IMG/VR virus record: IMGVR_UViG_3300042259_000159
Source: a virus
DNA length: 64,000 nt
Strand: one strand, 5' to 3'
Shown one piece after another: positions 4,585 through 40,329 of the stretch. A program made the position numbers and the translations under genes. The notes under the pieces were generated by a model. It searched no databases, was not told the origin of the DNA, and saw only the letters and a program-made list of their open reading frames with translations. Within the stretch, counting starts at the first letter, position 1. Each line of letters begins with the position of its first letter.

Positions 4585-4624
4585 ACACTACTGACCGAAT
4601 TAAACAAAAAGGAGAGTTGATCAT

Positions 4625-5148: not shown

Positions 5149-5188
5149 GTATTTAACGAAACAACATAAACAAACAAAAGGTTCAGAC

Positions 5189-5599: not shown

Positions 5600-5819
5600 G
5601 GTATACACAAAAACTATCAAGACAGAAAAGGAAGTCGCATTTACCGAATTAACATGTGACGAGTGTGGCAGAAAAGAAGAAACAAGCGCAGACGAATTGT
5701 TCGGATGGGATGCTATGACGTATGGTGGTAAGGTATACGATATATGCCCCTCGTGTGCTGAGGCTTTGGCTACTATTGTACAATCTATGAAAATAGAAAA
5801 GCAAGAAAATCTATACTAA
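5589..5819 (+). CDS. zinc-ribbon protein
   Basis: CDECG...CPSC cysteine pairs. Confidence 0.45.
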   Translation: MSRRVYTKTIKTEKEVAFTELTCDECGRKEETSADELFGWDAMTYGGKVYDICPSCAEALATIVQSMKIEKQENLY

Positions 5820-5842
5820 CCTGTTATAAGAAAAGGCTAACT

Positions 5843-6376
5843 TTGGACATCTTCTTTATAACTTTTATTCTGTGGTTTGGAGGGGAGACTATTCCCGATG
5901 ATCTCCTGCACGATACAATCAGTGAGGTTGTCGATATTGTATGTTCTCAGCACCACATACCGGACAAGGAAAGTTTTAAAAGGCTTTTATATGAGACTGC
6001 TCAATATGAAAGTGAGGGTGGAATATATATAGAACAGCTTTCCGGAGGAGGAGCAAAAGGTATCTATCAGATAGAGCCTTTCACAGCGGAGTGCATAAAA
6101 AGCAATTGGATGAAATATAACGCTTCCAGCGGTGTTGAGACACTTTATAAAAATGCCTATGAAAGCGGCATGGGCTTGGAGTGGAATCTAGAGGTTAATC
6201 TGGGGTTTCAAACACTTATAGCCTCTTTGATTTACATTTCAAGAATGAATAAAAAAGACCATGCCCTAATAAAAACCTTGACAGGAAGGGCAAAAGTGTA
6301 TAAGAAGTATTTTAATACACCACTTGGAAAAGGAACAGTTCAAGGGTATATAACCAAAAACAAAAAGGAGAAATGA
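5843..6376 (+). CDS. hypothetical protein (TTG start)
   Basis: ORF track; no in-frame ATG near the 5' end. Confidence 0.4.
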   Translation: MDIFFITFILWFGGETIPDDLLHDTISEVVDIVCSQHHIPDKESFKRLLYETAQYESEGGIYIEQLSGGGAKGIYQIEPFTAECIKSNWMKYNASSGVETLYKNAYESGMGLEWNLEVNLGFQTLIASLIYISRMNKKDHALIKTLTGRAKVYKKYFNTPLGKGTVQGYITKNKKEK

Positions 6377-6633
6377 TGAGTATTTACACACCGAAAGAGG
6401 TAGCAAATGTAGCAATGGATATCGTTCTGAAGGAGGGCATTGCACGTCTTGAGTATGATAAAGATTTTATCCGAAAGATTGAAAACACCCTTCAAGAAGC
6501 AGGGTACTTTAAGGTAAACATTACCGATGCACAGAAGCGTCACATTGCAAAAGCAATGCTTAAGGATGTGACACGATGGCATGAAAGTCGCCGTAAATAT
6601 ATGGCAGAAAGCCGTGGACATAAGAACTGGTAA
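6373..6633 (+). CDS. hypothetical protein
   Basis: ATGA overlap with upstream stop; AAGGAG upstream. Confidence 0.5.
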   Translation: MMSIYTPKEVANVAMDIVLKEGIARLEYDKDFIRKIENTLQEAGYFKVNITDAQKRHIAKAMLKDVTRWHESRRKYMAESRGHKNW

Positions 6634-6915
6634 GTCTTAATTCCTCGACTGGCCAGTCCCATTCAGACGTTTAAGGAGTACAAATGCTTGCTTTTTGTTC
6701 GCAAGACGAGTTTGATTTTTCAGAGGAAAAACAGGAAAGACGTGTAAACCGTATGAAGAAGGGAAGTAAACGGCTTACTAAAGAAGATCGTAAGAAGATA
6801 GTTAAACAAAGGCGTATACTTAAGAACAAAGAGGGCTTCAGGGATGAAGAGCATGATGGTGAGTATATCTAGCGCACCACACTCAAAATGCCTGAGAAAA
6901 AATAAGGAGAACACT

Positions 6916-17949: not shown

Positions 17950-18240
17950 TCAAGTGTTACTGATTTTGAATATCATTATCAATGGAGATATTGTCATTGA
18001 ACAGCATAACGCTGTTATACACACGGATCAATTAATTCCCATCGATCAGCATTTCGCTGGTGCTGCTGGAATCAACACTTGTTGAGATAATGACATCCAT
18101 TATCAATGCTGTTCAATGGCCGTTTTCAACGGCAATGTTTCACGTGAAACATTCCTGATCAGAATACTGGCAAGAAACATTGATAACGACAATCTTTATC
18201 AACGTATCTGGCGATCCTTTCAGGTTAACACAAATCTGGA
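17950..18240. repeat. TTATCAA(T/C)G repeat cluster with dyad symmetry (cattgaacagcat / atgctgttcaatg)
   Basis: Direct reading; non-coding. Confidence 0.7.
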
Positions 18241-18279
18241 AGAAAGTAAAGTAATATAAATTTTAATAAGGGGTTGACA

Positions 18280-18960
18280 TCTTCCTGATATTTTGATATT
18301 ATAGAAAGAGAGGCGTATGGGGAGGGGGGAGGCCTTAAGCACCGGTATACTTATATACCAAGTACCCCTATAGGTTCATGCCGGATATTTGCCCAAGTAC
18401 CCCTATAATGGTATACCGATATACTTATACACACCATATCTGCACACAGAAGGTATAGGGGGATATTTCCTGCTAGGATATTTCCACACAAAAAGGGGGA
18501 GTATATGGGAGGGATATTCCTGAAGGGAATAGATATTTTAGACAGGTATATATATATTATCTCTATGCTATATATACTCTATATATGTATATTCCATATA
18601 TACATATTTCTTCTTATTCTATTCTTCTATTTCTACTAATGAGATATATACATATTAGGACAGCATATGCATGTGTCTACATCACATGTAGACACATATA
18701 TACACATTCCCTTTCCTAACGGACAGCCGTATTATAACATATTTTTTGGATTTTGTCAAGAACTTTTTTGTATTTCACATGGAAAATATTTCATACCGGC
18801 TATTCCTTTTGGGAATAGCCTATTCCATTTTGGAATAACCATTCCTAGGGGAATAGCCTGTTCCCAGAGGGAACAGACATACCCGAAGGGAATAGATATG
18901 CCCATTGGAAATAGCAAAAGCCCACACACCTGTAAAGATATGTGGGCTGATAACATTAAC
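18280..18960. repeat. iteron-like array (TTCC-N5-GGAATAG units) plus TA-rich low-complexity repeats
   Basis: At least 6 units such as ttccttttgggaatagcc, ttccattttggaataacc, ttcctaggggaatagcc; aagtacccctata twice. Confidence 0.7.
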
Positions 18961-19018
18961 AGTGTTAATAACATTAGCGAAGCTAATAATATTTTATCCT
19001 ATCAATCAATACCTGTAG

Positions 19019-19249
19019 CTACGTGATCGAGGCAGAGCACCTGTGGTCGAGGTAGAACACCTTGCCAATGCAGAAGGTATGCCCTTCCTTCATAATGCGG
19101 AATGTTGCTTGCATGGGCACATTTACCTCCACTACCCACTGGATGCCTTGTTCAGGCCAGAAACTCAAGCTGCCGTTAAACTCAAAAGGCTTTGCTTCAC
19201 AACCCTTCACAGCGGTATTTATCTCTTCCATACCATCTTCACCAGTCAT
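19019..19249 (-). CDS. hypothetical protein
   Basis: ATGA overlap with the methyltransferase stop. Confidence 0.4.
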   Translation of the reverse strand: MTGEDGMEEINTAVKGCEAKPFEFNGSLSFWPEQGIQWVVEVNVPMQATFRIMKEGHTFCIGKVFYLDHRCSASIT

Positions 19250-20100
19250 GACTCCACGGAATCAAGCAAACTTGGCTGCTTATTTCTACGGCTAATAGCC
19301 TCGGCGTCTAGCCGCTTAGCGATTATCTCGCAGTACTTTTCTTCGCGCTCTATCAGGATCCAGCGGCGGCTAGCACGCTCGGCTGCAACTGCTGTTGTGC
19401 CGCTGCCCGCGCAGAAATCAAGCACTGTTTCACCTTCGTTGGTGTAGGTTTTGATGAGGTATTCCATTAGGGCAACAGGTTTTTGGGTTGGATGGAGTGC
19501 TTCAGAGTCTTGGCTAAATTTAATAACACCGCGAGGGTAGTTTGTAAATTCTTGTTTATAGCTTTCAGATTTGGTCAGATCATTATGTACACTTGTCCTA
19601 TCCCCATTCTCTTTTAGAGAATCCTTCCGTGTCTTTGTCCCCGTGTTTTTTACCACCTTGTCCACCTTTACAAGCCCCTGCGCGTTATAAGTTGGCTGCT
19701 TGCGGTAGAATACAAGCACGTCCTCAAATCCTTTTAGCGGCATCCTTTTGGCATTGGGGAAATTTGTTGGACGACCTTTCTCCCAGACCCATGTGTATTT
19801 AAGCATTTTGAGATTACTAGCCCCCAAAAGACTTGTAAACGGCTGGCTAGCAGTCATAACAACAGCCCCACTAGGCTTGATAGCCCGCTTCAACTGCTCC
19901 CACATTGGCTCTAGCGGAATAATGCTATCCCACTTACACGCCGTCATTCCAATTCAGCCGTAGGGTGGATCGCATAACACCAGGTCTATAGAGCCGTCTG
20001 GGATATATTTCATAACCTCAAGACAATCTCCATGAACCAACGTGTTAGGCAATACGCACCCTACGTGCTGTATCTCCTTTTCGTTAGTTATAGTAAACAT
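19246..20100 (-). pseudogene. DNA methyltransferase (N6A/N4C type) interrupted by a single in-frame TGA after the DPPY motif
   Basis: Minus-strand reading ...LVLCDPPYG-TGA-IGMTACKWD...; C-terminal FCAGSGTTAVAAE motif I; start overlaps the HNH stop (TAATG). Confidence 0.65.
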
Positions 20101-20642
20101 TAAATAAAATACTCCTGTATGTTTAGTTTCAAATTATTCCAATCTGTTTGTGTCATATCATTTTTGCACCTATTTTCAAACCACGACAAAAACTGCAAGT
20201 TTTCTATGTCATTAGTTCCTCCTTTTGCTTTTGGTGTTATGTGGTCTATTGATGGCTTTTTGTATTTTTCTTTACCGCCGCTAACCCATCTTTCATAAAT
20301 CCTATTAAATTGATCGTCATAGTAAAACCTACTTATATAACTTTTGTACCATTCAGTTGATATGTCCCATCTGCCTGAACGATTCGTAATTACATCATTT
20401 AACAGCTTTAATTTATCAAAATCCTTAAACTGCATTAACCAATCAGTCGTTACGTCAAACCTCAAGTGTGTTGCCATGTTGTTATAATTGCGCTCAATAT
20501 CACAATTAAATTTTTTAACACCTCTTAGATTCTTGGGCTTTCTGGTCTGTACCCCATTTCTCTTCAGGATTCTTGATATTAGTTTGTGATTAGTACCTAG
20601 CTTATCCGCTATAGAGCGCATTGAATCGCCACTTTTGTACAA
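20100..20642 (-). CDS. HNH homing endonuclease with N-terminal HTH
   Basis: SIDHITPKAKGGTNDIENLQFLSWFENRCKND. Confidence 0.7.
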   Translation of the reverse strand: MYKSGDSMRSIADKLGTNHKLISRILKRNGVQTRKPKNLRGVKKFNCDIERNYNNMATHLRFDVTTDWLMQFKDFDKLKLLNDVITNRSGRWDISTEWYKSYISRFYYDDQFNRIYERWVSGGKEKYKKPSIDHITPKAKGGTNDIENLQFLSWFENRCKNDMTQTDWNNLKLNIQEYFI

Positions 20643-20647
20643 TTCAA

Positions 20648-21049
20648 CTAATGGATAAATAGGTAATCCCCAATCTCCTCGGGGCGTTTAGCATTTTTTA
20701 CCTGCTCATTATAAGGAAGAACCAAGAGTTCACCAACAGCATCCCTTTTGGATACAGGCAGTTTTTCTTCCAGCCGTTTTTGCATAGACTCGGAGTCCAT
20801 TCCCATCAACAGCTCAAAAATCTCCAAATCTTTTAGACGATTATCGGTGGCAGGTAGAAGCGATCCAAGTATACAGGCTTTATTGAGTATCAGGGGTTTG
20901 CGCCCTTTCCAGTAACTGCCAAGAGCGGTCAATGTTTTGCTCTGAACAGCGCTCTGTTCTTTAAAACTTTCAGCGGATATTTTTTGCACTGGAAAGAGAT
21001 GTTCAATCAGTGCCGGTTTATCTTTCCATTCGAACGGTTTCAGTGCCAT
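20648..21049 (-). CDS. hypothetical protein
   Basis: Start MALKPFEW overlaps the upstream stop (TGATG). Confidence 0.4.
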   Translation of the reverse strand: MALKPFEWKDKPALIEHLFPVQKISAESFKEQSAVQSKTLTALGSYWKGRKPLILNKACILGSLLPATDNRLKDLEIFELLMGMDSESMQKRLEEKLPVSKRDAVGELLVLPYNEQVKNAKRPEEIGDYLFIH

Positions 21050-21279
21050 CAGATATCTCCCTTTTCTATAAATCCAACAAGAGGAAGGACTTCTTGTTTT
21101 GCTTGTATATTGTACATCTGGCAAAGATCAGTAAGATTGTCAGAAGATGTAACCCACTTACCAACCTGATTTTTGACATCGAAAAAGGTAACACCCTTAT
21201 TGTGATTGCATGGTAAGAGGTTTTCAAAAAGATTATGGCACCCCCTTAAGGAGGGCTTTTGTATCATAACACCTTCCAC
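21049..21279 (-). CDS. hypothetical protein
   Basis: ORF track. Confidence 0.35.
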   Translation of the reverse strand: MEGVMIQKPSLRGCHNLFENLLPCNHNKGVTFFDVKNQVGKWVTSSDNLTDLCQMYNIQAKQEVLPLVGFIEKGDI

Positions 21280-21423
21280 AGGTGGGACAAAATATTAAAC
21301 TGGTTAGTTCTGTTTGGTGTATAGTCATCAACACACCCTCCCATCACTTGTCATTTGCTTGCTCCTCTGTGTTTTTTGTATGGTTTTATAGCCTCGGCAT
21401 CGCCCCTGCTTTCTGCCCATTGC

Positions 21424-22248
21424 TTAGATGATTGCTTTATTCTCATGTGCACTCTCAATGCGCCGCTTGGCAATGTTGAAATAGCCTTGGTCTAGCTCAA
21501 TACCGATAAAGCAGCGGTTCAGCAGCTTGGCCATCTTGCCAGTCGTACCGCTGCCCATGAAGGGGTCGAAAATCGTATCGCCTTCGTTTGACCAGCTTGA
21601 TATATGTCTTTGCGCTAATTTTTCAGGAAAAATTGCAGGGTGCTTAAACGCCTCACTATCCATTGTTGAGTGACCTTTACCTGTCGTTATGTACCATATA
21701 TTTCCATCTATCTTATCTAATCCAACTGGTTTCCTTTTCTTGCCACTTCTGGCACTGCGCATTTTTTCAGTTGTAGATGAAAAATAACTGTTCTGACGTG
21801 AAGTTTCTTTTTCCGGATATTTTGTCGGAACTCGAATGGCGTTAAAGGTTTTAGGTCTACCCTTACTAAAAACAAACATATACTCAAAATCTTGTTCGTA
21901 TCTGTTGTGGTTTTTCGGTAGTGCGTTTTTATGGTATATCATCGTATCATGCAGCCGGAAGCCGCACTCCATAGCCCACAATGCTTGCTTAAAGCTAGTA
22001 CCTGTCTCACTACCCTTAATCGTGGCGTCACCAACAACCCAAACAACAACCCCACCATCTTTAGTAACACGGTATAGGTCTTTAATAACCGCCTTCCAAA
22101 CATGCTCTCCCCACAACGCATTATTGCCGTTATAAGTGCGCAGATTATCGTATGGTGGGCTTGTTACCGTTAAATCAACAATACCATCAGGTATTTCTTT
22201 CATCCGCTCAAGGCAATCGCCTAGCATCAGCTTAATCATCATCACCAC
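21424..22248 (-). CDS. DNA methyltransferase (beta-class N6-adenine/N4-cytosine)
   Basis: Motif IV SPPYD near the N-terminus, motif I DPFMGSGTTG near the C-terminus. Confidence 0.8.
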   Translation of the reverse strand: MVMMIKLMLGDCLERMKEIPDGIVDLTVTSPPYDNLRTYNGNNALWGEHVWKAVIKDLYRVTKDGGVVVWVVGDATIKGSETGTSFKQALWAMECGFRLHDTMIYHKNALPKNHNRYEQDFEYMFVFSKGRPKTFNAIRVPTKYPEKETSRQNSYFSSTTEKMRSARSGKKRKPVGLDKIDGNIWYITTGKGHSTMDSEAFKHPAIFPEKLAQRHISSWSNEGDTIFDPFMGSGTTGKMAKLLNRCFIGIELDQGYFNIAKRRIESAHENKAII

Positions 22249-22444
22249 CCATCAGCCCGTCAAACAAATCATCGGTATATCCTTCAATTTTCCCTTCAAT
22301 ATGCCCATCAATCCATGCCCCACCGTATGTTTTAGGGTAGGGGCTAGTAACACCTTCTAGCTTGTTACGGCTATCCTGTTCACAACACAAGGGGATGTAC
22401 TTGTTCTGTTCATTTTCACAATCCACCTCAATCACATATCTCAT
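22232..22444 (-). CDS. hypothetical protein
   Basis: ORF track. Confidence 0.35.
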   Translation of the reverse strand: MRYVIEVDCENEQNKYIPLCCEQDSRNKLEGVTSPYPKTYGGAWIDGHIEGKIEGYTDDLFDGLMGGDDD

Positions 22445-22465
22445 GATTTCTCCTTTTATTCGCTC

Positions 22466-23182
22466 TTATATTTCCGAAAGACGCTTGTTTCCCCTGAACC
22501 TTTTACCTTCCGAGTAATTTATTCTCTCCTCAAGATCAAGCATCCTCGCCCACAATTCCGGCTTATTATTTTTAACAGCCAAAAGGCTGTCCAAGGGTTG
22601 AAGGGGGCAGCAATAGCAGGATACCCTATTCATGTGTTTGTAGAGGCCCCCCCAATCAAAGCCCCTATCATAGCAGTATTCAAGGGCTGATTTTTCGTCC
22701 ATATCCCACTCTATCAAAGGAAAACGAAGAATCCATCCATGTTTTTCAGCATTAGCATTCATTGTTCTAGAGAGCGCCCTCTCTGATTCATCTTTTGCAA
22801 AGCCAATACACTTAACAATGTTACCATCTATTTTTTTATAGCTCATCCCCCTCAAATAGTAATCAAAAGCTTTTATCTTTTCTCTTGTACACCACCTTCT
22901 AGACGGTGATGGCCATCCAACACCACGGCACCTTACTTCTTTAGTCCCCCTAGAGACCACTTCGTGCTCCGTAAGCCAATAATCAAAGGGTTTGTTTGGT
23001 TTGAGTATGGTGATTTTGCGAGAAATATAGTCTTCAACCTTTTTGATATGATCATACATCTCGGGAAATTCCCAACCTGTGTCAAACATAACAATGTCTT
23101 CAATCTTTTCTCCACATTCAATGGCCTTCAAAAGCATTGCTGTAGAATCCTTTCCCCCGCTAAAACTAAAAAATTGTCGCAT
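22466..23182 (-). CDS. PAPS reductase-like PP-loop ATP pyrophosphatase family protein
   Basis: PP-loop FSGGKDS; C-terminal cysteine cluster SCYCCP. Confidence 0.6.
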   Translation of the reverse strand: MRQFFSFSGGKDSTAMLLKAIECGEKIEDIVMFDTGWEFPEMYDHIKKVEDYISRKITILKPNKPFDYWLTEHEVVSRGTKEVRCRGVGWPSPSRRWCTREKIKAFDYYLRGMSYKKIDGNIVKCIGFAKDESERALSRTMNANAEKHGWILRFPLIEWDMDEKSALEYCYDRGFDWGGLYKHMNRVSCYCCPLQPLDSLLAVKNNKPELWARMLDLEERINYSEGKRFRGNKRLSEI

Positions 23183-23462
23183 ATACTACTCCTTTTTGCA
23201 ATCTAACGTTTATTAACATATTTTCCTCTGACAGGTACTCCCCTGTAAAGCACAGGTGTATCAAAATAGTACTCTTCTGTCAACCTGTTTAGAGGAGTAT
23301 AATGCCAAGTTTGGTTTTTATTTGATGTCCATGAAAAATGAGGAAAGGGGAATATCTTTTCACAATTAACCCTCCCTCCACATGTAATTTGTTTCCAGAT
23401 TGCCCAGATAAGACAGTTACCGTACCGCATAAACTTACCACGTATAAAAGAGGATATAAAAG

Positions 23463-23774
23463 TTAAAGTTTGTCATCCAACCCCTTTATCCACCGACTAT
23501 ACTCTGTATCTGAGAGGCCAAAATATTCTTGAAGGGTAACACCTTCACATTCATCGCCACCATACCGCTTATCGATCATGTTGTCAACAATTTTCCTGTT
23601 TATCTTTTGAGGCTTATTTAATGTTGATGCCACATACTTAACATCTAGAACGTGGTATACATACAGGAGAACAATCCAAATAAACGGAGTCATCCCACTA
23701 AAGGTGGCATAAAGGGTCGCTACAAACAAGGTAGCAATAGTGGCAAAGTAAGAAACAATAAAAACAGGGTACAC
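23463..23774 (-). CDS. membrane protein
   Basis: Long hydrophobic N-terminal segments. Confidence 0.35.
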   Translation of the reverse strand: MYPVFIVSYFATIATLFVATLYATFSGMTPFIWIVLLYVYHVLDVKYVASTLNKPQKINRKIVDNMIDKRYGGDECEGVTLQEYFGLSDTEYSRWIKGLDDKL

Positions 23775-23785
23775 GGCAACACCTC

Positions 23786-24037
23786 CTAAATATGTTCTTC
23801 TATAAGATTCTTTGTACTTATAACACAGAACCTGATGGAGCTATACAGCCCAAGGAGCAAACCTGTGGTAATGAAGCCGCTAACAACTATGCTTCCTGAC
23901 AAAGCCATAACCAGAAGATAGGCAAAGAAGAGACAACCACACAACGATCCTGCAAAATCAAGCAGTGTTTTAAAGCCTTTCATGTTGTTCTTTCTCCATA
24001 ATATATTGACAAATAACTTTTGCTGCTTTTTCGTCAC
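23786..24037 (-). CDS. membrane protein
   Basis: Hydrophobic segments. Confidence 0.35.
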   Translation of the reverse strand: MTKKQQKLFVNILWRKNNMKGFKTLLDFAGSLCGCLFFAYLLVMALSGSIVVSGFITTGLLLGLYSSIRFCVISTKNLIEEHI

Positions 24038-24524
24038 TTACTAGGTTTATAAAAGGTATATTATACTCTATAAGAAAGTTTTTTATCTTAATATCTACCT
24101 CTTCAGCCTCTTTTACATCCTTTTGGGTGCGTCCCTTTGAATCATAGGGGAACTTTTTATTTCTTTCCAAGAGGATGTTAACGTTGTCATATGCATTGAA
24201 AGTTTCAACAACAAGGTGTTGAAATGCGTTTTTAGGAACAAAACCATCAACCTTGCAATAGATGGCTGATAGGAGTATAGGGCTGTCTGTAACCACGAAG
24301 TCTGCCTGCCCATAGATACTTTTCTGTTGCAGTAGCTGTTTTGCGAAAATGTAGAGTTGCTCTTCTTGGAGAATCTTCTCTCTGCCCTGATATACCAAGC
24401 TTTTAGCATACTCTGTTACCAGTTCAGTGCTCAGATGTCTCCTTTTCATTACTGAGAAAAGATCCGCAGCGACAGTGCTTTTACCGGCACAAGGCCCACC
24501 AAAGATGTTGATTATTTTAGTCAT
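23970..24524 (-). CDS. P-loop NTPase (nucleoside/nucleotide kinase-like)
   Basis: Walker A GGPCAGKST. Confidence 0.55.
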   Translation of the reverse strand: MTKIINIFGGPCAGKSTVAADLFSVMKRRHLSTELVTEYAKSLVYQGREKILQEEQLYIFAKQLLQQKSIYGQADFVVTDSPILLSAIYCKVDGFVPKNAFQHLVVETFNAYDNVNILLERNKKFPYDSKGRTQKDVKEAEEVDIKIKNFLIEYNIPFINLVSDEKAAKVICQYIMEKEQHERL

Positions 24525-24862
24525 TATCCCTCCAAACCTTCTTCAACAATCCACCAATTCTTTACAAGGAGTGTGTGGTATACACTCCCGTCCTCCAAAG
24601 ACACCACACACGCAAGAGGGATTCCATCATATATACCAATAACCTCTTGAATAATAAAAACACACCCCTCCTCTACCTGACACGGCTCATACTCCTCAAC
24701 AAAATAATCATAGAGATTACCATCCTTGAGAACAATAACGGCAAGCATCCCCACCAAAACCTCTTTAGTTTGTGTAACAACGGCTGTACCGTTTGAGGTG
24801 GCCTTGCTACCAATCAGAGAAGCTGCGCTACTATCTCTTACAAGGCTCAGGAGAAATACCAT
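24524..24862 (-). CDS. hypothetical secreted/membrane protein
   Basis: Internal Met followed by a hydrophobic stretch; overlaps the next ORF. Confidence 0.3.
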   Translation of the reverse strand: MVFLLSLVRDSSAASLIGSKATSNGTAVVTQTKEVLVGMLAVIVLKDGNLYDYFVEEYEPCQVEEGCVFIIQEVIGIYDGIPLACVVSLEDGSVYHTLLVKNWWIVEEGLEG

Positions 24863-25046
24863 CCCCACAAGCAGATAAATTATTAGTAAAGTCTTCTTCT
24901 TCAACAAAATACTCCTTTTTTTGTATTCTTGCTTTATATTCTTCCCCACAATCCAAACAAACAACGGATCCCGCTGTGTAGACACCGTCCGGTTGTTCTT
25001 CAAACTGAAAAACACATCTCCCTGAGCACTTCGGGCAAACCATCAT
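24831..25046 (-). CDS. zinc-ribbon protein
   Basis: CPKC...CLDC. Confidence 0.4.
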   Translation of the reverse strand: MMVCPKCSGRCVFQFEEQPDGVYTAGSVVCLDCGEEYKARIQKKEYFVEEEDFTNNLSACGDGISPEPCKR

Positions 25047-25270
25047 ACCGAATCCTCCTTTTCATTCATCTCTTTTAGGCATTGTAAACAGATATGCTCC
25101 CAATCTTCATCAAACTTAACCTTCTTTGATTCCACGATGGAAGCGATGGGGTATATGACCTCGTAATCATCTGTTACCCCGCAGCAGTCACAAAGGAAAG
25201 CCTCTTTCAAATACTTCATAACAACCTCCATGAAAAGAATATACACATAACAAAGAAGAAAGTCAAGCAA
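25043..25270 (-). CDS. zinc-finger protein
   Basis: CDCC...CLQC. Confidence 0.4.
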   Translation of the reverse strand: MLDFLLCYVYILFMEVVMKYLKEAFLCDCCGVTDDYEVIYPIASIVESKKVKFDEDWEHICLQCLKEMNEKEDSV

Positions 25271-25302
25271 AAAAAAAAGGAGAGCCGAAGCTCTCCGTAA
25301 AT

Positions 25303-27679: not shown

Positions 27680-30600
27680 CTAAATGCTTTTATCTACAAA
27701 CTTTCTCTGTGGAAAATCAAATTCCCGCCTTGTTTTATTCCAAGCTTTTACGGGTGTAAAAAACCCAACAACCCTTGTCAGCTGTGTACTTATATCTTCC
27801 GAACATATGGGGCATGTACTGAAGGAACCCATAGAGACATGGGAGTTGATACACTCAGAGTATACGGTATTAATGGCAAAATGTTCACATCCACAACCCA
27901 AAGCAAAACAGATAATTTTCTTGGCCTGCTCTCTTGTCAGCCTCTGCCCGACAGTGGCATGAACAATCCCCCCGCCTGTTAGGTTTTTAGTATATTCTCC
28001 GTCAATTCTGAGCCTGTCCCACAGAGATGCCTCTTCCCACAAAGGAACAAACTGGTTTGCATAGAGAGGGTATTCTATAAAAGTATCGCCGTGAATGATC
28101 TTATCTGCGCTGCAAACTTTTACAGCCATACTCTCTGCTGGGATTTGCTCAATGTTGAAGACATATCCTGCGTTCTTCTTGGTATACAATCTAGCTTTTC
28201 TGTTAAGAAATGTCAAGATCTTTTTCTTCAAATCCCCCTCAACACCGAACCTTTGTTTAAGAACCTTTTCACACTCGTAAAGACCAAGAATACCAAACGT
28301 TGAAAAGAGCCTGTTGAGGTCTATCCACCCACGCGTTATAAAAGGCTGAAGACCTATTTGTTCAAGGACATGAATCAAGACCTTATGAGCAATCAGAATA
28401 TCTTTAGCAGCCTCTACACGGTACGTGTATATTTTCCAAAAATCATCAATACTCTCGGCCTCAATTGCCATCTTGTTGAAATTAAGAGTAACAACTCTAT
28501 GGCTCCCGATGCTGGAAAGAACACCGGCACCGAAAGAATTGGAGGTGGATGCCACATCTAACATCTCTTCATCATTGATCAATCGGCAACAGCTAGCGAT
28601 CTTTGTGCTCTCAGATGTGAAAATATTGTAGCGCGAAATGTCTCTATTAAGAAATATTTCCAAACTCTCTTCGTCTGCAAGGATGTAATCATCGCCGTCC
28701 TTAGTTTTTGAAATGTTCATCGTGCAAACAGGGAACCTGTAAGGCATCCCGTTATTTGAGGGATCTCCTTTATCAAAGATGTCTAGGAATATTTCCTGCA
28801 ATTCAAAAACATAGTCAACACACTCTTCTATATCTACAACACCACCATCTGAAAACATCCACAAAAGATGTTCCTTTATGATGTACCTGAGTTTGTGTTT
28901 ATCAAACACCGATACATTGGTAAAGGGACTCTCAACTCCGTCACGACTCAAATGGTTTACGCTGTGAATAAGCTGTTGAAACTCGTTTTCTATCTCTTTC
29001 CTCACAGCCTTATCGTTTTTAAGCACATCAAGGGGAACCTTATTCTTTATCATGAGAAGGTGAGCAACATCTATAAATACAGTACCTATGGCTAGAGCAC
29101 CAGCAACATGCGATGACATTTGGTGGATTGTCTCACACAGGGCGGCAATATAACTATTAACTCTTTTTGCCGGTTTAGAGGGCAATACTCCAAAAGTTCT
29201 TCCTTCTGTAATGAGATTTGTTGCGTTTAAAGAATAACAATTATGTTGCACCATTCCGTTTGCATAAAAACGGCCCGTTGCTGTTGTCAAATCATATACG
29301 TCTTGAAGCTCCTCTCTAAGCTTTCTTGTACTAGGAATGTCTTCAAGATTAAACCTGATGATTTTTACAACCCTGTTGCTTTCGCCCTTGGTGTTTGCTT
29401 TTTCATTATACTTATCATAGTCTTCTTTATGCATCTTCATCTTATCAGAAAGATCAACCATCTTATTCGTACTTGACGGGACAAAGGAAAGGGCATAAAT
29501 CGAATTAGAAATATCACTCCCTTTTATCCTTTTTCTAAGGCATCGAATACCTTCAATGCCTCTAAGGACGTCATAAAGTGTGTTTATTACTGCCATAGAC
29601 TGCAAACAAATCTCCACCCTGCCATTCTTTTTGTAGGTATATCCGTCCGCGTCTACAAGCCCCGCAACAAGTGCCTCTACAGAATCATTTGTCCAAGAGA
29701 GGATGTTCTTAGGAAGAACCTTTGTGAAGCTATTTTCTTTGTTCCCGAAACCAAAAAAGGCACTTACAAGAAAATTCATATCATAAGAAGACCAATTAAT
29801 CTGTCTCTCGACTTTATCACTGGGCTTAAAAAGATTCGCATCAGGAAACAAGTCTTTTATGATACTATAAATTCTTGAGTTATCAATATCGTTTTGATAA
29901 ACACTGCAAAGCGTTCCCCCTCTTGTAAATCTGAAAGAGCCTTTTATGTCCTTACCGTTCATTACGCCATCATCAACACAATACCCTTCAAAGTTCCCAT
30001 CACCAAGCATAAAGCCAAGAAGGTAGGCCAGCTTTTCTGGAACAATTATTGTTTTTTCCACGGAGGGCAAACAAGTCTCTGTCAAAACAGCATCCCCAAC
30101 AGAAAGTTCTGAGGCTATTTTTTCAGTTCCATCTTCCATATAGATTGGGTGGTTGTCTGTTACCAAAGCAAAGTGCCCTGCCTCTGTCTGATACAAAGAG
30201 AATCCTGTATCCGTTTTATGCTTGATAATACGTTGTACAGCAACCCATCCATTGTTTGTATCCCAAACCTCTATATTAACTTTTTCACTCACATTGCAGG
30301 CCAACTTACCGGAACGACCTTTTGCGGTGTTCTTGTTAGTGATGTTCGCACTCACATTATTACGCAGCATTGCTGTTGTAATCTCTAGATCTCTTGTAAG
30401 GCCTTTTGTGTTAATTTCCTCATGCGTACCCCTATTTTCGGAGTGTATTGCAAACATATTGAAAAGCTTTTTAAGAGGAATACAAATAATCTCTCCGTTA
30501 ATTCTGACAAAAACAGGCGTGTTTCCATAATACGAATATGGAAGGTTTAGCTTCGTGCTGTCGGAGATGGGAAGACTGAAATCCAACATTTCTCCTATAA

Positions 30601-30982
30601 GCCTTTTAGCCCTCTTCTTGCCGTAGAGTTCCTTCATAACACGGTAGAGGAAATCGTACCCTGCAATTTTTTTCTGGGGGGCACTTGCCTCACTCTGTAT
30701 TCCGGCAATTGTCTTCTCATTCTTATTAGCATTGTCATCAATAGAGACATCATTAATGTTTGCATTTAATTGTTTTTGAAACATCTTGAGAAAGTCTGTA
30801 TTGTCCTGCGAAAGACCATGCAGACGCATAAGTTTTTCAGCTTTTGTATCAATCTCTTCTTGAGAAAGGGTTGTTTTACGAGAAAGATTCCTTTTCAAAG
30901 CCTTAAGCATCTGTTTCCGTGTGTATTCAATCTCAGCATCATTTGTAAAAGATGAAGAAAAACCTTTAGCTATGCTATTCAA
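27680..30982 (-). CDS. nrdD: anaerobic ribonucleoside-triphosphate reductase NrdD (class III), interrupted by an intein
   Basis: C-terminal glycyl-radical-like TRVVGFF and CPICS zinc site; long ORF; likely TTG start at 30982 (AAGGAG 9 nt upstream) overlapping the nrdG stop; track ORF extends to 31051. Confidence 0.8.
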   Translation of the reverse strand: MNSIAKGFSSSFTNDAEIEYTRKQMLKALKRNLSRKTTLSQEEIDTKAEKLMRLHGLSQDNTDFLKMFQKQLNANINDVSIDDNANKNEKTIAGIQSEASAPQKKIAGYDFLYRVMKELYGKKRAKRLIGEMLDFSLPISDSTKLNLPYSYYGNTPVFVRINGEIICIPLKKLFNMFAIHSENRGTHEEINTKGLTRDLEITTAMLRNNVSANITNKNTAKGRSGKLACNVSEKVNIEVWDTNNGWVAVQRIIKHKTDTGFSLYQTEAGHFALVTDNHPIYMEDGTEKIASELSVGDAVLTETCLPSVEKTIIVPEKLAYLLGFMLGDGNFEGYCVDDGVMNGKDIKGSFRFTRGGTLCSVYQNDIDNSRIYSIIKDLFPDANLFKPSDKVERQINWSSYDMNFLVSAFFGFGNKENSFTKVLPKNILSWTNDSVEALVAGLVDADGYTYKKNGRVEICLQSMAVINTLYDVLRGIEGIRCLRKRIKGSDISNSIYALSFVPSSTNKMVDLSDKMKMHKEDYDKYNEKANTKGESNRVVKIIRFNLEDIPSTRKLREELQDVYDLTTATGRFYANGMVQHNCYSLNATNLITEGRTFGVLPSKPAKRVNSYIAALCETIHQMSSHVAGALAIGTVFIDVAHLLMIKNKVPLDVLKNDKAVRKEIENEFQQLIHSVNHLSRDGVESPFTNVSVFDKHKLRYIIKEHLLWMFSDGGVVDIEECVDYVFELQEIFLDIFDKGDPSNNGMPYRFPVCTMNISKTKDGDDYILADEESLEIFLNRDISRYNIFTSESTKIASCCRLINDEEMLDVASTSNSFGAGVLSSIGSHRVVTLNFNKMAIEAESIDDFWKIYTYRVEAAKDILIAHKVLIHVLEQIGLQPFITRGWIDLNRLFSTFGILGLYECEKVLKQRFGVEGDLKKKILTFLNRKARLYTKKNAGYVFNIEQIPAESMAVKVCSADKIIHGDTFIEYPLYANQFVPLWEEASLWDRLRIDGEYTKNLTGGGIVHATVGQRLTREQAKKIICFALGCGCEHFAINTVYSECINSHVSMGSFSTCPICSEDISTQLTRVVGFFTPVKAWNKTRREFDFPQRKFVDKSI
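29240..30298 (-). other. intein with LAGLIDADG homing endonuclease domain inside NrdD
   Basis: Hint block B VTDNHPIY; LAGLIDADG motifs LAYLLGFMLGDGNF and LVAGLVDADGY; C-terminal VQHN followed by Cys; N-terminal boundary uncertain (may extend to ~30535). Confidence 0.7.
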
Positions 30983-31490
30983 AGCAGTAAACTCCTTCTT
31001 TTGTAAGTTTAACATAATTATTATTATAAAGTTCTTGGTTAGACGAACCAAGTACGAGTTTTGTCCTTTGCCCTTTTGTTGTATCTGACTGGTGCAGTTC
31101 TTTTATATACTCTCCTGTTTTTATAAATTTGAAACCGTTAAGATTAAGGTATTTAACAGTGTCAATATCGTATCCAGTATAAATACATATGTTAAAACAC
31201 CCACCGTATTGTTCTAAGAACTGTGCTGTAAACCCTCTGTTGCAGGAGGCTAGCGGATCTCCACCAAGAAGTACAATATTATTTGTGCGGTATTTTAAGG
31301 TCTCCTGTTTACAATGGTTGTAGAAGTCTTCAATGGAAAATTCCACACCACCCTGATATTCAGGGTTTTGCAGGGAGGGGTTATGACACCCCTTACAGGA
31401 AAAATCACACCCACACATAAAAAGACTTACTGCCCACCCATCCTTTGAGGGGTAGTCTGTAAATGTCATCTCAGAACCTGCAAATCTCAT
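30975..31490 (-). CDS. nrdG: anaerobic RNR activating enzyme NrdG (radical SAM)
   Basis: CGCDFSCKGC radical SAM-type cysteine motif; adjacent to nrdD. Confidence 0.75.
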   Translation of the reverse strand: MRFAGSEMTFTDYPSKDGWAVSLFMCGCDFSCKGCHNPSLQNPEYQGGVEFSIEDFYNHCKQETLKYRTNNIVLLGGDPLASCNRGFTAQFLEQYGGCFNICIYTGYDIDTVKYLNLNGFKFIKTGEYIKELHQSDTTKGQRTKLVLGSSNQELYNNNYVKLTKEGVYCFE

Positions 31491-33489: not shown

Positions 33490-33950
33490 TTACTTATCTC
33501 TCTGGTAGTAGTGCTTTGATATTGCACTTCTTTCCATTTTTTGAATTTTTTTATTCTGAACGTCGGACCCATAACGTCCAGAACACGTTCTGGAACAAAA
33601 GGGCCCAGCTTTATTTTTAATGTTTCTCTGTGTCACCGTTGGCGTAAAAAGAGAATCGCAATATGGACACTTTACTTCTTCCACTCTCACCCTTACCACA
33701 TCAAGCGAAGCATGGGAGGATCTACACAAAACTTGTAAATTTTCAATTTTGTTGTTCAGTGGATTTCTATCAATGTGGTCAACTGTCTCAGATGGATCTA
33801 AAACTCTGCCCAGATGCACTTCCATTATAATTCTGGAAGCCTGTTTAGCAGTTCTTTTAATTCCATCATATAAAACAATGACCAGTCTACCGTCTTTCCT
33901 TAAATATGGCCCATAAATTTTTTTACACTCTGGGTACAATTTTTGAATGT
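33490..33950 (-). CDS. HNH homing endonuclease
   Basis: HIDRNPLNNKIENLQVLCRSSH; track ORF extends to 34023 but that overlaps tRNA-Leu, so the start is uncertain. Confidence 0.6.
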
Positions 33951-33953
33951 GTT

Positions 33954-34037
33954 TGGTAGGAGAAGAGAGATTCGAACTCTCAAGGAATAATCCGTCGAGG
34001 CTTAAACTCGATGTGTTTACCATTTCACCATTCTCCC
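33954..34037 (-). tRNA. tRNA-Leu (anticodon UAA), type II, CCA encoded
   Basis: Manual fold: acceptor GGGAGAA/TTCTCCT, anticodon loop TTTAAGC, long variable arm, T-loop TTCGAAT. Confidence 0.65.
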
Positions 34038-34045
34038 GTATTTTT

Positions 34046-34067
34046 TATCTACCATTCCGCCATTCCC
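34046..34067 (-). other. orphan tRNA 5' fragment (Leu-like acceptor + D-arm)
   Basis: GCGGGAATGGCGGAATGGTAGA with no matching 3' half. Confidence 0.4.
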
Positions 34068-34076
34068 GCATTTATT

Positions 34077-34153
34077 TGGTACCCACTGTGAGATTCGAAC
34101 CCACACTAATCAGTTTCTAAGACTGATGCCTCTGCCAAGTTGGGCTATACCAG
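34077..34153 (-). tRNA. tRNA-like gene (class I, anticodon UAG) with mismatched acceptor stem; probably chimeric or disrupted
   Basis: D-arm, anticodon arm TCAGT-CTTAGAA-ACTGA and T-arm fold, but 5' ACTGGTA does not pair with 3' AGTGGGT. Confidence 0.4.
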
Positions 34154-34184
34154 TATTATGCTTATTATTTTATTTTGAAAGGCC

Positions 34185-34235
34185 ATATGTATACACATAT
34201 ATATATATACATATATATATGTATAGAGCAACCAA
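34185..34235. repeat. TA-rich microsatellite
   Basis: atatgtatacacatatatatatatacatatatatatgtatag. Confidence 0.8.
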
Positions 34236-34412
34236 AATGGTTAAATAAAAAGGTGTTTTGTGGAGACACCAAACTCCTCCAGTTTTAGTGATCTGGAAAC
34301 AATAAGCGGCGCAGGTGCTCTTTAAAACACGTGCTACCAAGCGTATAAATTGTCTAGGGGATTTCACCAAACACATTATGTTATTGGAGGGATCTTTCCC
34401 TAGACTCAGTAA

Positions 34413-34485
34413 AGCTCCTGACAGGACTTGAACCCGCAACCGGCTGATTACAAATCAGCTGCTCTGCCAGTTGAGCTACAGGAGC
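34413..34485 (-). tRNA. tRNA-Thr (anticodon UGU), CCA not encoded
   Basis: Manual fold: acceptor GCTCCTG/CAGGAGC, D-arm GCTC..GAGC, anticodon loop TTTGTAA. Confidence 0.7.
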
Positions 34486-34489
34486 AGAA

Positions 34490-34561
34490 CAGAGGGAGAA
34501 GGATTCGAACCTTCGAATGACGGGACCAAAACCCGTTGCCTTACCGCTTGGCTACCCCTCT
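34490..34561 (-). tRNA. tRNA-Gln (anticodon UUG), CCA not encoded
   Basis: Manual fold: acceptor AGAGGGG/TCCCTCT, anticodon stem ACGGG/CCCGT, loop TTTTGGT. Confidence 0.65.
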
Positions 34562-34569
34562 AAATTTTT

Positions 34570-34646
34570 TGGCTCCGGCGGCAGGATTTGAACCTACATT
34601 CGCAATGGTTAACAGCCATTTGCCTTACCAATTCGGCGACACCGGA
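34570..34646 (-). tRNA. tRNA-Asn (anticodon GUU), CCA encoded
   Basis: Manual fold: acceptor TCCGGTG/CGCCGGA, anticodon stem AATGG/CCATT, loop CTGTTAA. Confidence 0.65.
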
Positions 34647-34691
34647 ATGAACTTTTTATTTGTTATCAGCATTGTTTTGCTTTATTTTAAA

Positions 34692-34770
34692 TGGTCTCGG
34701 TGATTAGATTTGAACTAATGATTATTCCTGCTCCCAAAGCAGGTGCCATACCAAGCTAGGCGACACCGAG
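34692..34770 (-). tRNA. tRNA-Pro (anticodon UGG), CCA encoded
   Basis: Manual fold: acceptor CTCGGTG/CACCGAG perfect, anticodon stem CCTGC/GCAGG, loop TTTGGGA. Confidence 0.6.
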
Positions 34771-35251
34771 ATCAGGTGTGGTACCAAACTCCACTATGGG
34801 CAGAGGTTATAAGAAGGTCCGTACATGATATAGACAGATATTCTTCCATAACAGCGGTACGGACGCTGTCTCATTTTTATATCTTTCAGTGTGCTATTAC
34901 GCCAAAGGGAAATTAAGCCTTACCAGTTACGGGGTGCCCTTTTACTATCCACAAAGAATTTCAAATCGCGTGCATTCTAAGTATCGGAAAATTCTACAAC
35001 CACTTAAAGTACACCTCGTTTAAGAGATAGCGACCTGTGCTTCGTCCCACTCTTTAAAGGATGGCTGCCTCAAAGCCCACCTCCTGAAAAATGCATGAAG
35101 GATTATCCCTCCTTCGCTAAATACAACCTATCAATTTTAAGGGTTCTTGTCAAGAACATTTTAAGGTTTTTGAAATTTTTGTTGAACGCTGATTTGCTAC
35201 GCGGGTACAGCGTTCGAAACCTCGATAGCATCCTTGCCGTTGGCAAAGCTG

Positions 35252-35393
35252 TCAGGAGCCGCAGGAGGAGAATTGAACTCCTCTGGCATCAACACGCAGT
35301 CACCACAACTACATCTACCGTTACGGGTATGGCTCCCCATCCTAGTCACCTGTTGATACCTTATAGGTTCAGCCCTACCAAGGGCACTGCGGC
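35252..35393 (-). ncRNA. tRNA-like structured RNA (~142 nt) with 7-bp acceptor-like stem and T-arm; possible intron-containing or disrupted tRNA
   Basis: GCCGCAG ... GAGGAGTTCAATTCTCCTC CTGCGGC; body too long for a standard tRNA. Confidence 0.3.
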
Positions 35394-35399
35394 TTAAGT

Positions 35400-35620
35400 G
35401 GGTTGGTTGGTGCAGATTGTGAACGTACCCCCGCCTATAGAGGCGGAAGCTTCCTGCTTCAGCGAGAACAGCACCAGTAACTCCGAAGAGTTGTGGCGAA
35501 TTACACTCTCTCCACAGGCGTAAATTCCCGTGCGACCCACGGTACTTTATGAGTTACGCTAGGCAGATATTCGCCCAGCTTCTTCTCTAATATTTATTGC
35601 AGCGTTCTTGTCACGGTTAT
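35400..35620 (-). ncRNA. putative TnpB guide (omega) RNA region overlapping the tnpB 3' end and right end
   Basis: Position relative to tnpB; subterminal hairpin CCGCC-tataga-GGCGG at 35431-35446; no direct RNA evidence. Confidence 0.35.
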
Positions 35621-36795
35621 GATGACTGCCACACTTAAGGCAATCCCATTCCCGCACAGACAAGTCTTTGGTATCCTTGTTCTGGTAGCCACAGACATGG
35701 CATAGCTGACTGCTTGGATACCATTTGTCTATCTTGATAAGTTGCTTACCCTGCCATGCAAGTTTGTATTTCAGCATACTTGTGAACATGCTCCAGCCGT
35801 TGTCGGATATGGATTTACCAAAGTTGAACTTGCCACCCTTCTTTCGCTTCGCCATGTCCTTTACGCTAATGTCCTCTATGCCAATCACATCATAGCGGTC
35901 TGCAAGATAACGAGCTTTCTTATGCAGGAAGTCGCGGCGTTGATTAGCAATTTTCTCATGGAGTACAGCCAAACGTAGTCTTTGTTTATTCCTATTACGG
36001 CTCCCTTTTTGTCTCTTGGAGAGTTTTCTTTGTGCCTTGATCAATCTCTTTTCGGCTTCCCGTAAGAAATTTGGATAATCGGCGTTGTCCTCATCGGAAG
36101 CAACATACATCCCGTGCATAGCAAAATCCAATCCAAGAAAATTCTTCGGTATGATGGGAAGTATTTGGTTTTCATACTCCACCAAAATACTAATATAGTA
36201 TTTTCCTGACGGTGTTTTACTTATGGTTACAGTCTTTATGGTGCTATTCTCCATCAATGGACGATGCAGACACAGCTTTACCCAACCTATTTTCGGCAGC
36301 TTGACTTTGTTTCCCTCGATTCTTACAGAGCCATGTTGGTTGTTCGTAGAATATGAAGCATGACCCGCTTTCTTCGACTTGAAGCGTGGCTTGCAAAAAT
36401 GCTTCCTATTGCTCCAAAAGTTGTTATACGCCTTGTTCAGGTTTATTTGGGCATTGGCGAGAGCAAGGCTGTCAACCTCTTTCAGCCAAGGAAACTCTTT
36501 CTTGTACTGTGCAGGTGTGTTGTTCAGCCTCTCTCCTGTTTCCTTATAGTGATCAAGACGATCTCCAAGCATCTTGTTATAGATGAATCTGGCACTGCCG
36601 AAAGTCTTGGCAAACATAATCTTCTGTTCAATTGTCGGGTAGAGTCTATATCGGTATGCCTTATTCACTATAATCACCTGCCTTGATTTTCTATGTATTT
36701 ACGAATTGTCTCAAACGGAGCAATTATCTGGCTCAACTACTTACGTAAATTCGCTAGACACACCTTCATCCCCCACCTTAGAGGTGGAGGGCTTC
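35425..36795 (-). mobile_element. IS200/IS605-family element, TnpB-only (IS1341-like)
   Basis: tnpB ORF flanked by similar subterminal hairpins at 36773-36787 and 35431-35446; no tnpA seen. Confidence 0.7.
35559..36677 (-). CDS. tnpB: TnpB (IS200/IS605 OrfB, RuvC-like RNA-guided nuclease)
   Basis: N-terminal YRYRLYPT; C-terminal zinc finger CHVCG...CLKCG; 372 aa. Confidence 0.85.
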   Translation of the reverse strand: MIIVNKAYRYRLYPTIEQKIMFAKTFGSARFIYNKMLGDRLDHYKETGERLNNTPAQYKKEFPWLKEVDSLALANAQINLNKAYNNFWSNRKHFCKPRFKSKKAGHASYSTNNQHGSVRIEGNKVKLPKIGWVKLCLHRPLMENSTIKTVTISKTPSGKYYISILVEYENQILPIIPKNFLGLDFAMHGMYVASDEDNADYPNFLREAEKRLIKAQRKLSKRQKGSRNRNKQRLRLAVLHEKIANQRRDFLHKKARYLADRYDVIGIEDISVKDMAKRKKGGKFNFGKSISDNGWSMFTSMLKYKLAWQGKQLIKIDKWYPSSQLCHVCGYQNKDTKDLSVREWDCLKCGSHHNRDKNAAINIREEAGRISA

Positions 36796-36799
36796 TGGC

Positions 36800-36843
36800 G
36801 GGTTAGGTTAAATCCCTTGTGTCTACTAATTCCACCAATCGGG
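36800..36843 (-). other. partial tRNA-Leu-like 5' fragment next to the IS left end
   Basis: GCCCGATTGGTGGAATTAGTAGACAC duplicates the 5' end of tRNA-Leu at 36940 but lacks a foldable remainder. Confidence 0.4.
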
Positions 36844-36853
36844 CTAAAATCTT

Positions 36854-36940
36854 TGGTGCCCAATGCAGGACTCGAACCTGCACGCCATTTCAGGCAGGAG
36901 GGCTTAAACCTCGTGTGTCTACCAATTCCACCAATCGGGC
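36854..36940 (-). tRNA. tRNA-Leu (anticodon UAA), type II, CCA encoded
   Basis: Manual fold: acceptor GCCCGAT/ATTGGGC, anticodon loop TTTAAGC, long variable arm. Confidence 0.6.
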
Positions 36941-36949
36941 TAAAATCTT

Positions 36950-37033
36950 TGGTGCCTCAGACAGGATTCGAACCTGCACGGATCTCTCCACTTGGTCCTA
37001 AGCCAAGCGTGTCTGCCATTCCACCACTGAGGC
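36950..37033 (-). tRNA. tRNA-Leu (anticodon UAG), type II, CCA encoded
   Basis: Manual fold: acceptor GCCTCAG/CTGAGGC perfect, anticodon stem CTTGG/CCAAG, loop CTTAGGA. Confidence 0.65.
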
Positions 37034-40254: not shown

Positions 40255-40329
40255 ACTTACCTCCTGTTTTTGTTTTAGTTGTAAGGTGCTTTTACCTGTC
40301 AATATCAAACTACCCCTATTCCCCCTGTT

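Follow-up and report, generated by a model that had tools for sequence, protein, structure and literature searches.

We identified, on a 64,000-nucleotide (nt) stretch of viral DNA (IMG/VR record IMGVR_UViG_3300042259_000159; hereafter, the window), an intact gene for a 238-amino-acid (aa) PP-loop ATP pyrophosphatase of the phosphoadenosine phosphosulfate (PAPS) reductase superfamily that, judged by its sequence, appears to belong with SspD and DndC and not with the sulfate-assimilation enzyme CysH. Tentatively, and with somewhat less than even confidence, we propose that the protein is a DNA-directed, ATP-dependent adenylating sulfurtransferase, supplied with sulfur by a host desulfurase and serving in counter-defence alongside methyltransferases.

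The 238-aa gene is real and intact. A public gene call for the same locus (P0001, 223 aa) begins at Met16 and thereby removes the PP-loop; we favour the longer form because AAGGAG lies 6 nt 5′ of its ATG (Table 1). Automated annotation of PAPS-reductase-like genes may systematically drop the diagnostic PP-loop, as it did in P0001. Five cysteines (C98, C170, C189, C191, and C192) were invariant in an alignment of 50 homologs with 45–59% identity (alignment A1), in which the PP-loop was at least 90% conserved. The loop hexapeptide SGGKDS was present in 49 of 50 close homologs, its GGKDS core in 150 of 156 further homologs, and the SCxCCP motif in all 50 close homologs. An AlphaFold2 model of the 238-aa protein was confident (predicted local distance difference test, pLDDT, 93.9; predicted template modelling score, pTM, 0.90), and the fold class is that of the alpha/beta PP-loop enzymes. 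The five invariant cysteines may be the ligand set for an iron–sulfur (Fe-S) cluster and/or a persulfide relay, because DndC holds a 4Fe-4S cluster on three cysteines and has in addition a cysteine dyad (PMC10853773), a set that looks similar to the one containing C191–C192 here.

Superfamily membership was evident from Pfam PF01507 PAPS_reduct (4.5e-14; 53 bits versus a cut-off of 22.5) and from phrog_424, named 'phosphoadenosine phosphosulfate reductase', which matched aa 2–228 at 1.7e-42. Because the latter alignment covers profile positions 162–375 of 460, the protein lacks the N-terminal (ParB-like) part found in some phrog_424 members. Together with the invariant motifs, these matches are beyond coincidence and uphold the initial annotation of the gene, which had recognized a PAPS-reductase-like PP-loop enzyme from FSGGKDS and a C-terminal cysteine cluster. 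It had also called for a profile search to subfamily level, and this search pointed to an SspD/DndC-like protein. The best match in the defence library was SspD (PADLOC PDLC02782, 1.9e-25; aa 3–230 against model positions 2–209 of 277), followed by BrxP (2.7e-10, PAPS core only) and DndC (2e-6, N-terminal half only). The superfamily assignment is thus correct, and the subfamily is SspD/DndC-like.

Assignment to CysH was rejected on several grounds. Scores against the curated CysH models were 17.0 bits for TIGR00434 (cut-off 165.1) and 17.8 for PRK02090 (cut-off 154), and the adenosine phosphosulfate (APS) reductase model TIGR02055 gave 16.8 bits (cut-off 235.3). The catalytic C-terminal motif of CysH, ECG[LIV]H, is missing from the 238-aa protein and was found in none of 206 homologs, and the stretch of CysH aligned with the ATP-type SGGKDS loop of this family reads SSSFGIQAAV. 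From the curated scores, the missing motif, and the ATP-type loop it follows that the viromics label 'cysH auxiliary metabolic gene' (AMG) does not fit this protein.

Relatives of the enzyme are numerous and are carried by many kinds of mobile element. A word-indexed search returned more than 4,200 matches, and in an exhaustive library, clustered at 50% identity, 2,234 representatives passed E≤1e-3 and 183 passed E≤1e-30. Species-representative genomes, for the most part those of anaerobes, contain homologs at 486 or more sites. Homologs also occur on 79 plasmids (24 of them conjugative) and in many phages, tailed phages included, among them NinC-annotated proteins of lambdoid E. coli phages that are 27–29% identical over their full length. 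Solo homologs with 46–50% identity to the 238-aa protein, including L084 (ENA ctg6994c, from a 5.25-Mb genome) and L086 (on a 193-kb scaffold), were found in an inovirus-like prophage, a small integrative element, and a Dot/Icm-type conjugative element. The prophage also carries Rep_G2P, Zot, and DUF2523, and in the conjugative element the homolog adjoins ArdC and topoisomerase III; inovirus-like and conjugative elements both enter cells as single-stranded DNA. Such a spread over phages, a prophage, integrative and conjugative elements, and plasmids is typical of counter-defence genes. Several long members of the family were considered as fusions (P0323, 917 aa; P0363, 646 aa; and others) and rejected, having no recognizable fused domain and no methylase signal. 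P0031, a homolog with 50% identity, bears an N-terminal ParB-type 'NGQHR' domain, in agreement with the 460-position length of the phrog_424 profile, and is the only long member with a ParB-type motif.

The initial annotation placed the gene beside an intact DNA methyltransferase. The intactness of the 274-aa methyltransferase was confirmed; direct adjacency was not, as a 70-aa open reading frame (ORF) lies between the two genes. The three genes run in the same direction with short spacers. Association with methyltransferases recurs among relatives above background. After dereplication at 70% identity, 78 viral loci formed 46 clusters, and 11 of these had an N6_N4 or C5 methyltransferase either within two genes of the homolog or fused to it. 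Counted per ORF, methyltransferases made up 12.1% of genes at offsets of ±1–2 versus 3.4% farther away (odds ratio 3.8, p=0.0015), and a separate set of 80 genome loci gave 8.5% near versus 3.7% far. Adjacent homolog and methyltransferase genes often overlap by 4–8 nt, and recurrent neighbours include ParB_N–methyltransferase fusions and S-adenosylmethionine-synthetase-like proteins. The adjacency is real, enriched about 2–4-fold, and often translationally coupled, a moderate statistical tendency and not a fixed module; its enrichment suggests co-expression in DNA-modification or anti-restriction islands. One cassette, seen in six loci (L038/L044/L050/L051/L054/L170, at ~3900–6800), consists of a 281-aa protein that matches the S-AdoMet-synthetase N-domain, followed by a 419-aa ParB_N–N6_N4 methyltransferase that overlaps the PAPS-like gene by 4 nt, and some relatives of this cassette have a large C5 methylase downstream.

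Table 1 Features of the PP-loop gene and its surroundings (window coordinates).
Feature	Position	Strand	Remarks
PAPS-reductase-like (SspD/DndC-like) PP-loop ATP pyrophosphatase gene, 238 aa	22466..23182	minus	ORF call
Shine-Dalgarno sequence AAGGAG	23189..23194	minus	Spaced 6 nt from the ATG at 23182; direct sequence reading
PP-loop SFSGGKDS, aa 6–13 (FSGGKDS, aa 7–13)	23144..23167	minus	ATP alpha-beta pyrophosphatase signature
RRWCT, aa 95–99, with C98	22886..22900	minus	R96, W97, and C98 invariant in alignment A1
C170 codon	22673..22675	minus	Invariant in alignment A1
SCYCCP, aa 188–193 (C189 and dyad C191–C192)	22604..22621	minus	Invariant in alignment A1
70-aa ORF, acidic C-terminus, own ribosome-binding site	22232..22444	minus	Separates the PP-loop gene from the methyltransferase
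Intact beta-class N6_N4 DNA methyltransferase, 274 aa, TSPPY catalytic motif	21424..22248	minus	Pfam N6_N4_Mtase 7.7e-47
DUF1156 anti-phage-associated methyltransferase fragment	20648..21124	minus	About the first 133 aa of ~944
HNH homing-type endonuclease	20100..20642	minus	Pfam HNH 5.1e-6; phrog_1035 1.8e-12
Second N6_N4 methyltransferase (DPPY), one in-frame TGA at 19954–19956	19246..20100	minus	Pfam 4.1e-29 (C-terminal piece)
Putative leftward transcription unit with all the genes listed above	18919..25296	minus	Terminator-like hairpins at both ends

In cells, the related proteins DndC (DndABCDE), SspD (SspABCD, which modifies single strands), and BrxP (BREX type 4) serve as PP-loop subunits of the three known systems that phosphorothioate the DNA backbone (PMC10853773, PMC7188994, PMC12914056). 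SspD resembles the 238-aa protein in profile, size, and its canonical PP-loop, but it is encoded with sspA (cysteine desulfurase), sspB (DUF4007), and sspC (ATPase), whereas the gene studied here belongs to a type that stands solo in mobile elements. DndC and BrxP are of the same superfamily branch and share with this family a theme of ParB-like partners (DndB on their side; ParB_N–methyltransferase neighbours and the P0031 fusion in this family), yet they are much larger: DndC has ~450–480 aa, about twice the length of the phage protein, and BrxP, at ~780 aa, includes DUF4007 and extra domains that the single-domain 238-aa protein lacks. Their genomic contexts were also absent, in that DndD and DndE of dndBCDE were not detected in the phage, and no BREX genes (type 4: brxC, pglZ, brxL) were found nearby.

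Among phage proteins, NinC of lambda type is kin within phrog_424, and one Vibrio phage repeats the gene order of the lambda nin region, with the homolog placed after NinB. A fusion of a PAPS domain with a Dam methylase in a Vibrio phage, together with one adjacent gene, enables escape from Dnd restriction (bioRxiv 10.1101/2021.05.05.442762, Piel et al. 2022). There, as at the locus described here, a phage PAPS-like domain is tied functionally or physically to a DNA methyltransferase, and the setting is one of counter-defence (presumably so at the present locus). The differences are that the Vibrio phage domains are fused and their methylase is Dam-type; the present genes are separate, the 70-aa ORF intervenes, and their methylase belongs to the N6_N4 (SPPY) type. 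Phage PAPS reductases have been classed as DndC/SspD homologs and candidate anti-defence genes, with the fusion cited as anti-Dnd (PMC13551039); the family is widespread, already catalogued, and already discussed, and this single gene adds little beyond what the literature recognizes.

Among protein structures, a single-sequence search of PDB sequences returned nothing meaningful, and a profile search returned PptA (21fy chain C, 3.9e-5) along with weak matches to CysH and QueC. PptA, the only solved phage relative, comes from a multi-chain entry and aligns with the 238-aa protein over the WCT and CxxC regions, the RRWCT segment lying opposite 'AACT' of PptA. Its gene lies between the RNA polymerase and portal genes in Vibrio phage vB_VhaP_VH-5 (MN497414.1, 18758–19510; L083, 4746–5498), and the PDB was found to have no entries for its phage gene neighbours. 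In the literature searched we found no published account of its function. A link between PptA and the anti-Dnd fusion of Piel et al. was considered and set aside as unsupported; related vibriophage genes of that collection are stand-alone.

Our proposal of a DNA-directed sulfurtransferase is founded on the SspD, BrxP, and DndC profiles being the closest, on the methyltransferase and ParB context, on the spread over mobile elements, and on the anti-Dnd precedent in a Vibrio phage; the Fe-S or persulfide chemistry, the DNA substrate, the sulfur transfer, and the counter-defence role are what we infer from these. The protein would be a homolog of SspD/DndC of the mobile-element type with its catalytic apparatus intact, and its SGGKDS loop would bind ATP and adenylate a substrate oxygen, freeing pyrophosphate. 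The five invariant cysteines would carry an Fe-S cluster and/or a persulfide, loaded by an IscS-type cysteine desulfurase of the host, since the phage encodes none, and sulfur would then take the place of the AMP-activated oxygen. The substrate would most likely be DNA and the purpose most likely counter-defence, either by placing phosphorothioate-type 'self' marks on the phage genome or by neutralizing host systems that depend on such marks, while the co-expressed DNA methyltransferases would guard against ordinary restriction enzymes.

Several observations weigh against this proposal. Neither the window nor the remaining ~8 kb of the ~70-kb genome, where many small ORFs have no Pfam match, revealed a cysteine desulfurase, a DndD/SspC-type ATPase, SspB/DUF4007, or DndE, and none of these families recurred beside homologs. 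The main objection is that, on published data, phosphorothioate (PT) synthesis requires a dedicated NTPase and DNA-handling partners in addition to a PAPS-domain protein; in a Bacteroides strain that carried a PAPS-reductase gene but lacked dndD, PT could not be detected (PMC12914056). The match to the PADLOC SspD model is one of profile similarity only, and the NCBIfam DndC equivalog model TIGR03183 gave 16.1 bits against a cut-off of 290.4. Among the phage relatives, the protein with the anti-Dnd phenotype is on a distant branch; PptA is 21% identical to the 238-aa protein and its PP-loop is degenerate (FSCGAPS), whereas that of the 238-aa protein is canonical; and lambda can do without NinC, which is only distantly related (PMC10695390). 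Methyltransferase adjacency is missing in about three quarters of lineages. The one PAPS–C5-methyltransferase fusion found, in L056, has a genuine open frame, yet each of the 120 proteins closest to it, with identities of up to 96%, is a methylase standing alone. We rejected it as strong evidence; the fusion may be an indel artefact, as a 1-nt indel across a 4–8-nt gene overlap would yield it.

The lack of pathway partners beside a solo gene would also be expected if the protein modified nothing and instead competed with host DndC, SspD, or BrxP, disabling PT-dependent or related defence and leaving phage DNA unmarked. To interfere, the protein might attach to the host's cysteine desulfurase, might attach to the DndDE/SspBC scaffold, or might use up an activated intermediate. 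This reading is in keeping with the physical binding of SspD to SspA (PMC7188994), with the solution of PptA within a multi-chain entry (chain C), and with a phage PAPS-domain protein whose anti-Dnd effect has no known mechanism (10.1101/2021.05.05.442762). We nevertheless consider it unlikely, because a full ATP-binding PP-loop and five cysteines that are near-universal over hundreds of diverged homologs speak for an enzyme that has kept its catalysis and against a binding decoy, and because a family of 2,234 cluster representatives at 50% identity is far wider than PT systems.

Adenylation could alternatively activate the carbonyl of a base, whether in DNA itself or at the level of the nucleotide precursor, for replacement by sulfur or nitrogen, the product being a non-canonical base that works alongside methylation. 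The initial annotation had linked the family to phage DNA hypermodification, a connection for which we found no evidence: the documented links to DNA are backbone phosphorothioation and Dnd escape, and no family member is documented in the literature searched as making a modified DNA base. The phage PP-loop enzymes that have been tied to base hypermodification are QueC-type (7-deazaguanine), a different family that matches the model of the 238-aa family weakly. The closest named profiles (SspD, BrxP, and DndC) are those of backbone-modifying and not base-modifying enzymes, and the genes scanned included none of the usual companions in hypermodification pathways (glycosyl, aminoacyl, or kinase transferases, DpdA/TGT). 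We judge base modification to be less probable still than interference. The nucleoside liquid chromatography–mass spectrometry proposed earlier for virion DNA, which would look for canonical bases and methylation, would overlook a phosphorothioate backbone unless PT dinucleotides were specifically assayed.

An RNA substrate seems improbable, and ranks below base modification in our assessment. Under this explanation the enzyme would thiolate or otherwise modify tRNA or another RNA, tuning translation or repairing or evading tRNA-targeting defences. Members of the family, however, are found in temperate phages of small size, in an inovirus-like prophage, on plasmids, and in conjugative elements; what surrounds them there is no set of RNA genes but DNA methyltransferases, ParB-like DNA-binding domains, and ArdC; and Pfam detected no RNA-binding domain (THUMP, PUA) in the 238-aa protein. 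Hardly credible, finally, is a true PAPS/APS reductase acting as an AMG that boosts host assimilatory sulfate reduction, a function that the Pfam and PHROG names evoke and that virome papers commonly adopt by listing phage 'cysH' as a sulfur AMG (e.g., PMC10914622), given the sub-cut-off scores, the motif and loop differences described above, and a context of DNA metabolism and mobile elements, not sulfur metabolism.

The PP-loop gene is part of a methyltransferase-rich block transcribed leftward from ~25.3 to 18.9 kb. Strong terminator-like hairpins bound it at 25279–25296 and 18919–18948 (found by consensus scan only, so that the operon structure is inferred), and no Rfam families were found in the 17–26-kb region. 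The 274-aa methyltransferase also matches phrog_67 (1.4e-71) and the PADLOC orphan methyltransferase model (7.4e-82), and its SPPY motif IV presumably denotes N4-cytosine specificity. Its start is overlapped by 17 nt by the 70-aa ORF, which has no Pfam, PHROG, or PADLOC match and is not conserved beside homologs in the 78 viral loci. The DUF1156 fragment is a 158-aa ORF (PADLOC DUF1156_MTase 9.9e-70, model positions 1–133 of 944; NCBIfam NF042963 1.9e-39), and with the HNH gene that immediately follows it looks like a truncated defence-type methylase beside a homing endonuclease. Both pieces of the second N6_N4 methyltransferase match phrog_67. Its in-frame TGA directly follows the catalytic DPPYG ('CDPPYG*IGMTACKWD') and is also present in both Joint Genome Institute (JGI) copies of the phage; a pseudogene and stop-codon read-through are candidate explanations. 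Farther away, a D12/Dam-class methyltransferase (39545–40548, minus strand) seems to be split into ORFs at 40087–40548 and 39545–40024; counting it, the phage holds at least four DNA methyltransferases as copies or remnants. The block also encodes a protein with an AAA_28 domain, which we considered and rejected as a DndD/SspC-type motor, as it looks like a deoxynucleoside monophosphate kinase (phrog_2107). This protein and the flanking small ORFs (70, 75, 103, and 83 aa) were likewise rejected as conserved partners, having no homologs beside relatives of the PP-loop gene.

The window represents most of the genome of a tailed phage of ~70 kb, and the same phage with the same gene order is present in two JGI metagenomes; on a 70-kb contig, the end of the window leads back to PolA via a 5′-3′ exonuclease and DnaB. 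At the nucleotide level the region matched none of 50,697 phage records, and the phage has no close sequenced relative in that collection. The phage encodes PolA, a CCA-adding enzyme, an ATP-dependent ligase, dUTPase, ThyX, an intein-containing NrdD, eight tRNAs, TnpB, and a contractile-tail structural module. NrdD, the anaerobic ribonucleotide reductase (1123 aa; 27680–31051, minus strand), is the gene that carries the intein, and the JGI annotation of the same phage places a Fer4_12 activase-like gene after it. TnpB (IS605 OrfB, 35559–36677) has one copy of a tRNA-Leu(taa)+tRNA-Leu(tag) pair on either side (33954–37033, minus strand) within a tRNA cluster that also has Thr, Gln, Asn, and Pro, and an HNH_3 endonuclease ORF (33490–34023) overlaps the first tRNA-Leu prediction. 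In the packaging genes, a Mu-like portal gene (43430–46941 region, plus strand) is split into 44110–44910 and 46459–46941 with a LAGLIDADG endonuclease gene at 44999–45655 in between, and the terminase ORF at 43430–44167 contains a nuclease domain only; the split portal and the short terminase ORF suggest intron- or intein-type insertions. The stretch from 18100 to 19050, where the coding strand switches and GC skew changes sign, could be a regulatory or origin region; it has no Rfam match. It contains a perfect sigma-70 consensus on the minus strand (TTGACA-17-TATAAT with TG, 18759–18731), a near-perfect one on the plus strand (18274–18302), AT-rich 15-mer repeats (18548–18608), and ~3.4 copies of a 20-nt palindromic unit (GGCTATTCC..GGAATAGCC, 18800–18873).

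PAPS-reductase-like genes are among the AMGs most often reported in viromics, where they are read as phage steering of sulfur assimilation. The 238-aa example contradicts that reading in its ATP-type PP-loop, its want of the CysH motif, its sub-threshold scores, and its mobile-element, methyltransferase, and ParB context, features that speak instead for an SspD/DndC-like enzyme directed at DNA, with a probable role in counter-defence. A more far-reaching version of our proposal holds jointly that a solo SspD-like enzyme of ~240 aa, with only a host IscS-type sulfur supply, suffices for DNA sulfuration by mobile elements; that the product is a phosphorothioate made without DndD/SspC-type motors, or a thio-base; that in this phage and its relatives the enzyme works as a unit with the overlapping or adjacent methyltransferase, the sequence being targeted by, for example, the methyltransferase or a ParB-like domain; and that this minimal portable system has spread over tailed phages, filamentous phages, plasmids, and conjugative elements. 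As a conjunction it is quite doubtful, and we rank it below base modification and above an RNA substrate. If it were true, viral 'cysH' sulfur AMGs would largely be DNA-modification or counter-defence genes. Establishing the activity of the enzyme would lead to the re-assignment of a large block of viral annotations, would explain the puzzle of lambda NinC, and would show whether mobile elements carry a minimal tool for DNA sulfuration or against phosphorothioates.

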